NCBI GenBank assembly: GCA_029856435.1
Contig: JAHQXB010000106.1
Coordinates: forward strand, 1-53,469
Direction: 5' to 3'
Source of the DNA: Candidatus Jordarchaeia archaeon
GTDB taxonomy: Archaea; Asgardarchaeota; Jordiarchaeia; Jordiarchaeales; Jordiarchaeaceae
Length of the DNA stretch: 53,469 nt
The translations under genes were made by a program, and so were the position numbers. The notes beneath the pieces were generated by a model that was given only the letters and a program-made list of their open reading frames with translations, was not told the origin of the DNA and made no database searches. This document shows positions 24,643 through 28,372 of this stretch, piece by piece. Numbering within the stretch: the first letter of the stretch is position 1; every line of letters begins with the position of its first letter.

Positions 24643-25032
24643 ATGGGAATAGTTATGGTTCTGGATGAAAAGGCGATGAGACGCCTGTTGAAAAAAGGTG
24701 TAGTTTATACCTTTAGGATGAATCGAAGGACTGGAATAGAAAACTGGTTTGGAAGTGGTTGCATATTCAAAAATGGAAATCTCCTCTACGATACTCCCAA
24801 GAAGATAAATGTCATCGTTGAGGAGATAGGAGAAATAAATCCCCAAAAGGATCTTGTGTGGTACCTTAAGGATAGCGGTTTCGATACTTTGGAGGAGTGG
24901 CAGAAGGCGATAAAAAAACACTATGATGTGTTTAGCGGGCTTAACGAGAAAAGTAACAGTTTGCCAAAAAAAGGCTGGCTCTATAAAATCATATACTTTA
25001 AGGATGATGAGAAAAATGAAAATAAAATGTGA
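24643..25032 (+). CDS. Hypothetical protein, ASCH/PUA-like
   Basis: T-x-R near the N-terminus and SGFDTLEEW...IKKHY resemble ASCH-domain motifs. Confidence 0.5.
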   Translation: MGIVMVLDEKAMRRLLKKGVVYTFRMNRRTGIENWFGSGCIFKNGNLLYDTPKKINVIVEEIGEINPQKDLVWYLKDSGFDTLEEWQKAIKKHYDVFSGLNEKSNSLPKKGWLYKIIYFKDDEKNENKM

Positions 25033-25264
25033 GAATCTACAATTCGAAAGTGTATGGTGTCCAAGTTGTGGAGCACCAATGGCCATAAAGGATAAGACGG
25101 ACGCTTGGATGAGTAAGGCGGACGGGGGCTCAATCTACGTAGCAAAGACAGTCTACACTTGCCAAGACTGTAATGTTTCAGCAGAAGTGGTATGGACTTG
25201 GAAACCGAAAAAGGAAAAAATACCTAACCAAACCATTATACCAAAAACCACAATAAAAACGTAA
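25016..25264 (+). CDS. Small zinc-ribbon protein
   Basis: CPSC...CQDC; overlaps the 3' end of the upstream ORF. Confidence 0.6.
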   Translation: MKIKCENLQFESVWCPSCGAPMAIKDKTDAWMSKADGGSIYVAKTVYTCQDCNVSAEVVWTWKPKKEKIPNQTIIPKTTIKT

Positions 25265-25361
25265 CAATCAAGTAATAAACTGAAAGTCAAACAGACTGGG
25301 AAACAAGTGCAGAGAACCCACTGCAACATACCTATTTGGAAGGCATAGGGTGAAAAAAGGG

Positions 25362-26057
25362 TCAGCTAATATTAGACCTCTCTTTGCCTCTCATTTTACT
25401 TATTTGTTTTAATATCAATTGTAAAGCTTCTCTCAGACCTTGGTTTTGAGTCGCCACGGTTCCCACAACTGGTACGTCCATTCCAATGCTCAGCTGCTTG
25501 GCTACATCTTCTGGCTTCATTGCTCCTTCAAGATCTTGCTTGTTGGCGAGAATAACTACAGGTACATTCTCGCTTATTTCCCTCTTTACTCGATACAGGA
25601 TGTCTCGCGCCAAACTAAAAGTTTCAGGATTTGTGCTGTCCACCACAAGAAGAACCCCAGCGCTCCCCTTGGCTAAAATCTCTTGCATAAAGGCAAAGCG
25701 TGTATGTCCGGGAGTTCCAAAAATGTGAAGGTCAAAAACATTAATCTCATCGTACTTTCTGCCAAAATCGAAGCCAACAGTTGTTTGTAATGCGTCTATG
25801 CTTGTGGCTTTTCTTGAAAGGTTGGAAACGATAGTGCTTTTTCCTGCGTTATAGGGACCTGTTACTAATAGTTTGAGGACTTCTACATCTGATTTGCCCG
25901 AGGGTAGTGTGTTCTCAGTGCATATTAAAACGTTTCCGGAATCATCTTCAAAGAATAGGAGTAGGTCTCCGGAGCCTGCTTTCAACTTGTTTCTAACTTC
26001 TTTTGAAAGGGTTATCCGATTCTTGTCGCTTATCCTTGCTACGCCTAAGAGCTTCAT
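25362..26057 (-). CDS. AbrB-like DNA-binding domain fused to an MglA/Arf-related small GTPase
   Basis: N-terminal ISDKNRITLSKEVRNKLKAGSGDLLLF (AbrB); GPYNAGKS, TTVGFDFG, GTPGH, NKQD. Confidence 0.8.
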   Translation of the reverse strand: MKLLGVARISDKNRITLSKEVRNKLKAGSGDLLLFFEDDSGNVLICTENTLPSGKSDVEVLKLLVTGPYNAGKSTIVSNLSRKATSIDALQTTVGFDFGRKYDEINVFDLHIFGTPGHTRFAFMQEILAKGSAGVLLVVDSTNPETFSLARDILYRVKREISENVPVVILANKQDLEGAMKPEDVAKQLSIGMDVPVVGTVATQNQGLREALQLILKQISKMRGKERSNIS

Positions 26058-26180
26058 TGGCTTTCCCTATTAAGTGGATATTGCGAGAATATAAAAAGTT
26101 TACTAATTCCCACTTTTCCCACCGACACGCATTGCATTACATATTCAAAAAATAAAAAAGAGAAAAAAATTAAGTCGTGC

Positions 26181-26696
26181 TTAGTCTTCGACTTCTCTCC
26201 TTATTTCTTCTTCTAATGTTTCTACTCCTGGCTCTCCCTTGAGATCCTTGGCGAATATAATCTGGTAGCCGTACCTAATGAATCTAATTACAAACACTAT
26301 TAAAACTAGGCCGATTACGAAGCTGTAGTCAACCGAAGCCCACAATGTAGAGCCCCATAAGGTTTGATAGATGGAGCCATAAACCCATATAACTCTTAGC
26401 ATATTGGCAATTATGAAAACCCAAATTAGTGAGACAAAGTATCTTGCTATTCCGCAAGCCCCACTTAATCTGAAGTGGCTTCTGCGCGATGCTTTCTGAA
26501 AGAAGATAAATGTCGATATTACACATCCAAATAGTATCAACATGACTGGGTCTTTCTGCTGGATGAAGAAGCCATAAGTGTCTAAGATGGAAAATGTTAC
26601 AATGGGCACAATGGAAAAGAATACAAAATATTCTACTGCATACACAATTCCACTATACAGGGGGTTTGTTAATATAATTTTAATTAATGACATCAT
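26181..26696 (-). CDS. Hypothetical four-TM membrane protein
   Basis: Four hydrophobic helices and a charged tail; co-oriented with 26712-27239. Confidence 0.7.
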   Translation of the reverse strand: MMSLIKIILTNPLYSGIVYAVEYFVFFSIVPIVTFSILDTYGFFIQQKDPVMLILFGCVISTFIFFQKASRRSHFRLSGACGIARYFVSLIWVFIIANMLRVIWVYGSIYQTLWGSTLWASVDYSFVIGLVLIVFVIRFIRYGYQIIFAKDLKGEPGVETLEEEIRREVED

Positions 26697-26711
26697 TCAT
26701 TCCTCCGTAGT

Positions 26712-27239
26712 TCATGGAACATATTGGGGGCTGCTGAAAAATAGTGTGGTCGGCGTTATAATTAGGTTTAAGCCCGCAACAGGAAGATTGAACCAAATGA
26801 TAAAGACTGCAGTTAAATATATTGGTTGACCGTTGTCTTTCGCCCATCGTAAAGCCTCCCAAGGTATATCCAAATTTACATCTAAGAAGAAGGTTTTAGC
26901 ATATACTCCCAATAAAATTCGCGTAGGATCAGCAGATTTCAAAGGTATAGTCAACTCGTAGGGCCAAAGTATATAATCCATATTACTATCAATTACTGTT
27001 CCATTGGGAAATGATGCTTGGTAATAACCAACAAAATTGAGATCATAACCAAATCCACCGTAGTATAGAGTTTTTGGGGCACTGGGCGATAGGGCGAATT
27101 GAGCATTCAGAGTGGGAATGACCTGCAGCAACTGGGCGGCATTGTAACCTAGAAGAAGACCAACAGCTGATGAACCTAATCCTGCAACTATAGCCATCCA
27201 CTTTAAAAATTTGAAAGCCCTTCTCTTTAATGTAGACAT
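26712..27239 (-). CDS. Hypothetical membrane-anchored protein with a beta-rich extracellular domain
   Basis: Basic N-terminus, single TM/signal segment, NGT sequon. Confidence 0.7.
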   Translation of the reverse strand: MSTLKRRAFKFLKWMAIVAGLGSSAVGLLLGYNAAQLLQVIPTLNAQFALSPSAPKTLYYGGFGYDLNFVGYYQASFPNGTVIDSNMDYILWPYELTIPLKSADPTRILLGVYAKTFFLDVNLDIPWEALRWAKDNGQPIYLTAVFIIWFNLPVAGLNLIITPTTLFFSSPQYVP

Positions 27240-27308
27240 CTTATTTCCTCTAAATGTTTAATTTAGACAATAACATGTGTTAACATATAAAAATTTCTTG
27301 GACTGGTT

Positions 27309-27360
27309 GCCCGTAAAAAGATATTATCTTGACGGGCTAACGTGTTCCCCTAATTAGGGA
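27309..27360. repeat. Two adjacent palindromes in a divergent intergenic region
   Basis: Interrupted GCCCGT...AAGATA-T-TATCTT...ACGGGC (27309-27338) and perfect 14-bp TCCCTAATTAGGGA (27347-27360). Confidence 0.6.
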
Positions 27361-27757
27361 TGTATTAGTTTTGTTTATGACATATTCCGATTTCTACCAC
27401 GTTTAAGGTAGTGTATTGAGCAATTTTTAATTTCAGATGCTGGTAGGATTCAAGTGTTACCTTCATATCACATATTTTTAAATTATAAACTGCTGTTTTA
27501 AAAATTGCCGGCGTTTTTGGTTCTAGTTAGGGGTTTGGTGTGACTGTTATGTCGCTAGAAATTGCGAATACTCTCTCTCGCAACGGGGATCTCATTTTTA
27601 CGACCATATTTGATTCCACCAAATCCCCTAGAAAAAGGGAATCAAAAGAGGAATACGCCCTATTAGTAGAAATTGTGTGCGGGGGCCTTCTGAATTTTTT
27701 TGGGGGAAAGCGGTCTTCTAATATCTCTACTTTAAAGCTTAGGTGAGTGGAGTAGAA

Positions 27758-28372
27758 ATGACCGACTGGTTCTCAAGAATTGCGGGTATTTTTAAAAGAA
27801 ATGGAGAGTTCACATTAGGCATTTATGGCAGTCCTAACGCTGGTAAGACCACCCTTGCCAATAGACTATGCATGGACTGGATGGGCAGAGAAGCTGGGAA
27901 AGTTTCTCCCATTCCTCATGAAACTCGAACAGCCAATATTGTAGAACACCTAGAAATGCATTACAATGGCAAACGTCTCAGAATGAATGTTGTGGATATG
28001 CCGGGCATTTCCAGTAAAATTGATTACAAAGCCTTCCTTAAACATGGATTATCCACCGAGGAGGCAATTCAAAGAGCTAAAGAAGCAACGAGAGGGGTAA
28101 TCGAAGCCATCCAATGGCTAGATACTGTGGATCTTGCTTTAACGGTTTTCGATACAACTAAGGTACCCTTTGACCAAGTTAACCTAGTTATCTTGGGAAA
28201 CTTGAGAGCGAAAAATATACCCAACATCATAGTGGCAAATAAAATAGATCTGCCTAAATCTCGACCAAAACTAGTAGCTGAGTCTTTTCCTGACCATAAA
28301 TGCGTAGCAATATCTGCTCTGACGGGGGAGAACATAGAAGAGCTTTATAAACTAATCATAGAATCGCAGTGA
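27758..28372 (+). CDS. arvA: Small GTPase OapA/ArvA (archaeal vesiculating GTPase)
   Basis: GIYGSPNAGKTTLANR, SPIPHETR, VDMPG, AIQRAKEATRGVIEAIQWLD, ANKIDL; first gene of the typical three-gene cluster. Confidence 0.9.
   Translation: MTDWFSRIAGIFKRNGEFTLGIYGSPNAGKTTLANRLCMDWMGREAGKVSPIPHETRTANIVEHLEMHYNGKRLRMNVVDMPGISSKIDYKAFLKHGLSTEEAIQRAKEATRGVIEAIQWLDTVDLALTVFDTTKVPFDQVNLVILGNLRAKNIPNIIVANKIDLPKSRPKLVAESFPDHKCVAISALTGENIEELYKLIIESQ

Follow-up and report, generated by a model that had tools for sequence, protein, structure and literature searches.

Can a small GTPase of the Ras superfamily act on promoters directly, through a DNA-binding domain carried on the same polypeptide? The question is raised by a gene in the stretch of DNA analysed here, a window of 53,469 nucleotides (nt) that represents contig C29 of an Asgard archaeal genome (3.5 Mb, 97.8% complete), whose public relatives carry the label Freyarchaeota/Jordarchaeia. 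The gene is a 231-residue open reading frame (ORF) at positions 25362-26057. An original prediction had read it as an AbrB DNA-binding domain fused to an MglA/Arf-related GTPase and had proposed a GTP-switched transcription factor, possibly controlling the nearby arvABC locus. Its coordinates were borne out, and the strand, which it had not given, is the minus strand. Our analysis upholds the architecture and does not support the connection to arvABC, while the GTP-switched transcription factor is plausible as a predicted function.

Full-length matches to the protein (query residues 1-226 of 231, 84-100% identity) occur in six of the six genomes of the window's genus, one of them a closed 3.6-Mb genome, and throughout the genus the locus is present as a single copy in a syntenic position. 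Wetland-soil samples contain genomes of this genus. The fusion is likewise carried by five protein clusters at 90% identity, drawn from four independent sources (NCBI, JGI, ENA and Logan assemblies). Given that it recurs in all genomes of the genus and in independent assemblies, the fusion is real, and an assembly artefact, which the original prediction had named as an outcome that would undo it, is contradicted. Both domains are translated and constrained, since the ratio of nonsynonymous to synonymous substitution rates (dN/dS) is low at near-saturated synonymous divergence: over five diverged lineages of the genus, codons 1-48 give values of 0.03-0.15 and the G domain 0.02-0.05. The linker that joins them is the least constrained segment (0.06-0.68, based on few sites). 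There is no in-frame ATG, GTG or TTG in codons 50-66, which cover the linker and the start of the G domain, and no methionine between residues 2 and 123; a separate G-domain product is therefore unlikely. A search of 35 further genomes of the phylum did not recover the fusion; it is confined to one genus (Freyarchaeia/Jordarchaeia) and constitutes a recent lineage-specific invention rather than an ancestral trait. No other AbrB-GTPase protein was found by a phmmer scan of 1.84 billion cluster representatives and a profile search for longer proteins, which reach only AbrB domains like that of the fusion, and the layout was also not found among neighbours in the ESM Atlas or in full-text literature searches. 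The earlier statement that no characterised protein has this architecture thus stands.

The N-terminus is an AbrB/SpoVT domain, in agreement with the swapped hairpin that had been proposed for residues 1-48 or thereabouts. When compared with PDB sequences by phmmer, residues 1-45 align with residues 1-46 of the SpoVT N-domain (E 1.9e-4), sharing its register from the initial Met-Lys and retaining the Gly-Asp turn. Arg8, Arg14, Lys19 and Arg22 align with Arg9, Arg15, Lys20 and Arg23 of SpoVT and are retained in all five lineages, except for a change of Arg8 to Lys in one. The 55-residue domain alone recovered 53 proteins (E <= 0.001) from the 1.84 billion representatives, comprising 50-60-residue single-domain proteins, tandem-repeat AbrB proteins and long multi-repeat proteins. 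An alignment of 22 rows was built from the fusion's domain, its four orthologues and 17 single-domain proteins; 21 of these rows match PF04014, and the profile derived from it matches the solved structures 5itm and 2l66 (Sso7c4) as well as SpoVT (E 3e-8). The AlphaFold2 model of the domain alone (predicted local distance difference test score, pLDDT, 87) contains strands at residues 2-8, 32-37 and 43-47 and a helix at 19-25, the expected second strand of the AbrB layout being uncalled in the monomer, and the top seven rows of a Foldseek search with this model are SpoVT, Sso7c4 and AbrB (probabilities 0.95-0.28). Because the phmmer alignment, the profile, the PF04014 matches and the model agree, we consider the assignment secure, despite scores of the protein's own sequence that fall below the curated cut-offs.

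Residues 61-222 match the Pfam families Ras (E 5.7e-18) and Arf (E 7.5e-17, 61.8 bits) as well as TIGR00231 small_GTP (E 3e-18). The motifs of a complete small GTPase are all found at the predicted places: G1 GPYNAGKS at residues 67-74, TTVGFD at 92-97 with the G2 Thr-Thr pair at 92-93, G3 GTPGH at 114-118 and G4 NKQD at 172-175. GPYNAGKS and NKQD fit GxxxxGK[ST] and [NT]KxD and are invariant over 16 relatives; T92 and T93 are invariant too, and the FGTPGx common to the whole family places a glycine at the universal Asp position of G3. In the full-length AlphaFold2 model (mean pLDDT 80) most of the G domain exceeds 90, and its best Foldseek matches are the Asgard ArfR1 (8oum), Arl6 and MglA. 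MglA groups 2-5 are characterised by Thr-Thr in G2 (no intrinsic Arg finger) and by a GTPGQ G3 motif without the universal Asp, Group 4 being archaeal (Wuichet and Sogaard-Andersen 2014, PMC4316618), and a survey of Asgard genomes recognises an MglA2-5 group there (10.1101/2024.02.28.582541). Because the Thr-Thr pair in G2 and the GTPGx in G3 match these published features, the motifs place the G domain with the MglA groups 2-5 type, with His where Gln is usual. The earlier label of an MglA/Arf-related GTPase with His at the Gln position was correct. We rejected membership in the Arf family proper: G3 has Gly for Asp (not DxxGQ or WDVGGQ), the N-terminus is an AbrB domain and not an amphipathic helix, and the Ras hit is equally good. 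The last residue of G3 is His across the fused clade; a stand-alone paralogue and most relatives have Gln there. EF-Tu, Sar1 and SR-beta use a His in this position for catalysis, and His alone therefore does not mean an inactive enzyme.

Relatives of the G domain at 39-50% identity are mostly proteins of 380-400 residues with an N-terminal KaiC-like ATPase domain. The nearest relative by identity (60-62%) is the stand-alone paralogue, a 172-residue protein that is present in every genome of the genus. It is encoded at C81:26397-26915 (plus strand), about 1.7 kb from a cluster of UEV-Vps23, Vps28 and EAP30 genes of the endosomal sorting complexes required for transport (ESCRT-I/II). The fused clade and the stand-alone clade are each monophyletic (Shimodaira-Hasegawa-like approximate likelihood ratio test support 97 and 98, respectively) in a quick tree that does not resolve them as sisters. 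Language-model neighbours in the ESM Atlas are plain GTPase clusters only, namely CvnD-like ATP_bind_1 proteins and Asgard 'MglA' clusters.

Two further observations concern these relatives. The stand-alone paralogue is convergent with a gene for a 232-residue zinc-ribbon protein, and the layout up to about C81:30900 recurs in related genomes. A second GTPase of the MglA-like family lies at G000:C54:5221-5931 on the minus strand (L012 1255-1965), with an orthologue at L029 1504-2208. It shows 41-45% identity and reads GTPGL or GTPGM in G3, leaving it without a catalytic Gln, and its C-terminal extension of about 75 residues gives only weak winged-helix matches (HTH_12, HTH_36, ArsR and IclR; E 0.02-0.2). 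The gene is flanked by ORFs of 247 and 229 residues, and open frames of similar length to this GTPase exist in many genomes of the phylum.

The fusion gene is probably its own transcription unit with its own promoter, given the conserved TATA box and the terminator-like T-run that follows the stop codon of the upstream gene (Table 1). The candidate operator TGGGA-AAAG-TGGGA is kept in four of the five lineages; sequence farther upstream is not conserved. The AbrB protein of B. subtilis recognises bipartite TGGNA motifs whose halves are separated by 4-5 bp and may be direct, inverted or everted (PMC3738160), and the candidate operator shares the bipartite TGGNA layout and the 4-bp spacer with these experimentally mapped sites. 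Among the 16 exact copies of TGGGA-N4-TGGGA in the genome, only the one in the gene's own promoter falls outside long open frames. The window contains 0.22 relaxed bipartite sites per kb, which gives odds of about 1 in 75 that a 60-nt promoter window has one by chance. Autoregulation at TGGGA-AAAG-TGGGA may thus be reasonably inferred from the promoter sequence.

A regulon beyond the gene's own promoter is a lead only. A second strict site, the inverted TCCCA-CTTT-TGGGA (C41:3348-3361), precedes a roadblock/MglB-like gene (C41:3546-3926) by 198 nt and shares an 11-mer with the promoter of the fusion gene. In the most distant member of the genus, represented by the closed genome, the orthologous roadblock promoter reads TGGGA-AAAT-TCCCA, with the same middle half-site. 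Because this entire promoter is conserved, little weight attaches to the conservation of its site. Blocks of 13 and 23 nt from the fusion gene's promoter were rejected as regulon markers, their matches in the genome being mostly coding DNA, and the extended matches at C22:1089 and C133:24024 are not upstream of genes. The promoter-motif scan also brought up a repeat of about 60 nt with two non-coding copies (G000:C90:9629 and G000:C123:17442), which begins AAAGTGGGA and whose shared stretch ends ...cagatccctacaa.

How might the two domains work together? The reading we favour, tentatively and at slightly less than even confidence, is that of a genus-specific one-component regulator, in which a duplicated GTPase of the MglA groups 2-5 type has acquired an N-terminal AbrB/SpoVT domain. 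As expected from the family, the AbrB domains of two chains would interlock into a DNA-binding barrel, yielding a constitutive dimer with two G domains, each placed where SpoVT has its GAF domain and AbrB its tetramerisation domain. The nucleotide state of the G domains, set by the supply of guanosine tri- and diphosphate (GTP/GDP) or by a partner of roadblock type whose gene lies elsewhere in the genome, would control either higher-order assembly or the geometry of the barrel, and hence promoter occupancy. The best candidate target would be the gene's own promoter, with autoregulation at the TGGGA repeat abutting the TATA box. A GTP-switched regulator is plausible because the basic residues aligned with SpoVT are kept, because SpoVT provides a precedent, and because the gene's own promoter contains a conserved AbrB-like site. 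The one-component interpretation draws on the analogy with SpoVT, which joins AbrB to GAF, and with AbrB-PhoU genes, which offer a precedent by analogy, within the same lineage, for AbrB joined to a sensor domain. In these genes, found in related genomes beside a pst phosphate-transporter operon, the AbrB domain (PF04014) is fused to PhoU (L009 4726-5712, plus strand; L008 4918-5812); in one genome the two parts are split into two genes.

Several points weigh against a GTP-switched regulator of this kind. The protein's own N-terminus scores 27.3 bits against TIGR01439 AbrB (cut-off 28.3, E 2e-6) and 15.6 bits against PF04014 (cut-off 24.7). The Foldseek E-values of the top seven rows (0.15-0.75) are not significant, the query being a small monomer from a family of obligate intertwined dimers, and VIA-align of the N-terminal monomer model gave Z 2.3-3.9 with plant B3 barrels, SpoVT, MazE and AbrB intermixed. 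At the level of DNA, the TGGGA pair is missing in one lineage (L001), non-coding DNA shows no enrichment of strict bipartite TGGGA sites (6 of 60, with 17.5% of the genome being non-coding), relaxed sites upstream of 14 roadblock genes number 1 where 1.07 are expected, and there is no bipartite TGGNA site in the intergenic region between arvA and the 175-residue ORF. His in place of the catalytic Gln leaves the predicted hydrolysis behaviour uncertain, and the restriction to one genus affords little comparative power. Finally, dimerisation, DNA binding, GTP dependence and targets of the fusion protein are predictions.

The neighbourhood of the gene bears on where such a protein might act. In all members of the genus, arvC-arvB-arvA (OapCBA; by Pfam OapB, OapC and an Era-like GTPase) is divergent from genes for two membrane proteins of 168-175 and 170-171 residues, which are followed by the fusion gene. 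ArvABC drives the formation of extracellular vesicles in Haloferax (PMC10927574). A sister family has the membrane-protein pair together with oapABC but no fusion gene, the genes downstream being those for TIP49 and a Ras-like GTPase. The cluster is therefore older than the fusion gene, which was added next to it. The neighbourhood alone does not tie the fusion gene to arv. The original prediction had further pointed to palindromes at 27309-27360 as sequences in which to look for DNA binding. They are present in the window, as a hairpin GCCCGT...ACGGGC and a 12-bp palindrome CCCTAATTAGGG, and were discarded as conserved operators, because in the other four lineages the sequence there is unrelated or deleted (the deletion being in L001). 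No repeat is common to the fusion-gene promoter and the arv intergenic region, and an Rfam scan of positions 25000-28000 returned nothing real. With palindromes that are not conserved, no candidate site in the arvA intergenic region and a sister family that lacks the fusion, the proposed control of arvABC is not supported.

The arrangement of these genes could nonetheless be taken to mean that the AbrB domain only dimerises the G domains or docks them to a partner, for instance the adjacent membrane proteins or the ArvABC machinery, the fusion being a membrane-remodelling or signalling GTPase without a DNA role. We regard this, the main rival of the regulator, as possible but rather unlikely. 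The nearest paralogue lies beside ESCRT-I/II genes, the fusion gene adjoins the two membrane-protein genes and the arvABC vesiculation operon in all genus members, candidate DNA sites are not enriched genome-wide, and nucleotide-dependent dimers are common among small GTPases. However, to our knowledge all characterised N-terminal AbrB domains (AbrB, Abh, SpoVT, MazE/VapB and Sso7c4) bind DNA, and the basic residues aligned with SpoVT are conserved. Moreover, the membrane pair and oapABC do not need the fusion, as their occurrence without it in the sister family attests, and the fusion gene appears to be a separate transcription unit. Alternatively, the G domain might not be a switch under GAP/GEF control and might simply report cellular GTP to the AbrB domain, as CodY does in Firmicutes, without partner proteins. 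Such a nucleotide-pool sensor would be compatible with the lack of an adjacent roadblock/MglB gene (of 15 roadblock/LC7 matches in the genome, none is on the fusion gene's contig) and with the His that replaces the catalytic Gln throughout the fused clade, since this change, which the paralogue does not share, could mean altered or slow hydrolysis. Yet the same His is catalytic in the GTPases named above, and a roadblock gene has a similar bipartite site upstream. As a variant of the regulator that we favour, the pool sensor is not separable from it by sequence, and we consider it improbable.

The remaining explanations fare considerably worse. PF04014 is the MazE antitoxin family, and AbrB-type VapB/PIN pairs are found a few kb away in relatives, so that an antitoxin domain joined to an NTPase effector in a toxin-antitoxin-like or defence element could be envisaged. 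PADLOC gave no meaningful match, however, no toxin gene (PIN, MazF or YhaV) is adjacent, and the locus is syntenic and single-copy. The C-terminal part is, in addition, a 170-residue G domain and not the short toxin-binding tail of MazE, VapB or PrlF, and it is a close paralogue of a housekeeping-looking GTPase; we judge such an element to be very improbable. Barely credible is a gene-call artefact, in which the N-terminal 60 codons would be an untranslated leader or a decaying remnant. Although the protein's own sequence falls just below the curated AbrB thresholds, the low dN/dS over the N-terminal 48 codons, the lack of another start codon before the P-loop, the conserved TATA box 33-40 nt upstream of the first ATG and a reading frame kept in five lineages from four data sources all argue against it.

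Among known systems, SpoVT of B. subtilis (AbrB N-domain plus GAF; PDB 2w1t, 2ro5) is the best solved match to the N-terminus and, like the fusion, has a swapped hairpin from residue 1 followed by a globular regulatory domain. Unlike SpoVT, the fusion has a Ras-superfamily G domain instead of GAF and an archaeal host, and its DNA binding is predicted. AbrB and Abh of B. subtilis and the archaeal Sso7c4 (PDB 1yfb, 2k1n, 2l66 and 5itm) belong to the same fold family as the N-terminus, and the mapped AbrB sites have the layout of the candidate operator, but these proteins lack an NTPase domain and have at most a short multimerisation tail. With MglA groups 2-5, such as CvnD of the actinobacterial conservon and the archaeal 'Group 4', the G domain shares the Thr-Thr pair in G2, GTPGx with Gly for Asp, and NKxD; it differs by the His in G3, the N-terminal AbrB domain and the lack of an adjacent roadblock/MglB gene. 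The last of these differences is not strictly defining, and no conserved neighbours were found for archaeal Group 4 MglA (PMC4316618).

The KaiC/RecA-like ATPase-GTPase proteins of methanogens and other archaea (380-400 residues) have a G domain of the same family and also an added N-terminal domain, which in their case is an ATPase and not DNA-binding; they are widespread and not limited to one genus. The window's genome itself contains a 397-residue open frame with a G domain of the family (38% identity) at G000:C132:24369-25161 (minus strand), to which a roadblock gene is immediately adjacent, unlike in the AbrB fusion; the KaiC-like domain of this frame is known from relatives of similar length, not from the C132 copy. 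Lastly, in CodY and in STAND and AAA+ NTPase transcription factors such as MalT, the nucleotide state gates a DNA-binding domain within one polypeptide, as is proposed here for the fusion. CodY, though, binds GTP through GAF, STAND and AAA+ proteins use other P-loop classes, and none has a Ras-superfamily G domain. Both AbrB regulators that carry an additional sensor domain and MglA-type GTPases with extra domains are already known, and what is new is the combination of AbrB with a GTPase.

A bolder version of the proposal is that a Ras-superfamily GTPase serves directly as a transcription factor in an Asgard archaeon, with AbrB-G-domain dimers in the GTP form binding bipartite TGGGA sites to repress or activate their own promoter and that of a roadblock-type regulator. 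We think this rather unlikely as it stands. If true, a small-GTPase switch and gene expression would be linked in a feedback loop that needs no intermediate kinase or effector. No path from a GTP switch to a promoter could be shorter than a direct fusion to a DNA-binding domain, of which we found no described example. The setting adds to its interest, given that studies of the expanded small-GTPase repertoire of Asgard archaea treat it as a precursor to the signalling and trafficking of eukaryotes. At 231 residues the protein is small; it looks soluble, and its own promoter offers a defined candidate site. Its importance is limited by its occurrence in one uncultured genus, as a recent lineage-specific invention of predicted function.

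Table 1. Features of the AbrB-GTPase gene and its surroundings (positions in the window).
Feature	Position	Strand	Remarks
Whole AbrB-GTPase gene, 231 codons and stop	25362..26057	-	Orthologues at 84-100% identity in 6/6 genus genomes
AbrB/SpoVT swapped-hairpin domain, residues 1-48	25914..26057	-	TIGR01439, SpoVT N-domain, profile, AlphaFold2, dN/dS 0.03-0.15
Linker, residues 49-60 (12 residues)	25878..25913	-	No in-frame ATG/GTG/TTG
Small G domain, MglA groups 2-5 type by motifs, residues 61-222	25392..25877	-	Motifs, Pfam/TIGR matches, Foldseek, dN/dS 0.02-0.05
Basic C-terminal tail, residues 223-231, and stop	25362..25391	-	From end of last helix; length differs between orthologues
TATA box TTTTTATA	26090..26097	-	33-40 nt upstream of first ATG; preceded by AGTAAAC; both invariant in 5 lineages
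Candidate operator TGGGA-AAAG-TGGGA, direct repeat with 4-bp spacer	26108..26121	-	Directly upstream of transcription factor B recognition element (BRE)/TATA; kept in 4/5 lineages
T-rich stretch past stop of upstream membrane-protein gene	26146..26170	-	Likely archaeal terminator
Upstream neighbour, 171-residue multi-pass membrane protein	26181..26696	-	No family match; beside fusion gene in every genus member
Second upstream neighbour, 175-residue membrane-anchored protein	26712..27239	-	No family match

Two minor observations concern the arv side of the locus. The membrane pair is divergent from oapABC/arvABC both in the genus and in the sister family (locus L031 4799-5844, 31% identity), which suggests that the two proteins encoded at 26181-27239 are an Arv-associated pair. 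On the plus strand, a small ORF of 68 codons spans 27540-27746, beginning with GTG at 27540 or ATG at 27549 and ending 4 nt inside the arvA start. It is open in all five lineages of the genus, with a conserved N-terminal part, and JGI called a 75-residue gene there; a conserved TATA-like box lies by it, near 27468-27485. The same stretch has a possible long-range RNA stem of about 19 bp (27521-27542 with 27615-27633), six pairs of which show compensatory changes. By these features, the stretch at 27540-27746 could encode a fourth arv gene that annotation has missed, form a structured leader, or do both.

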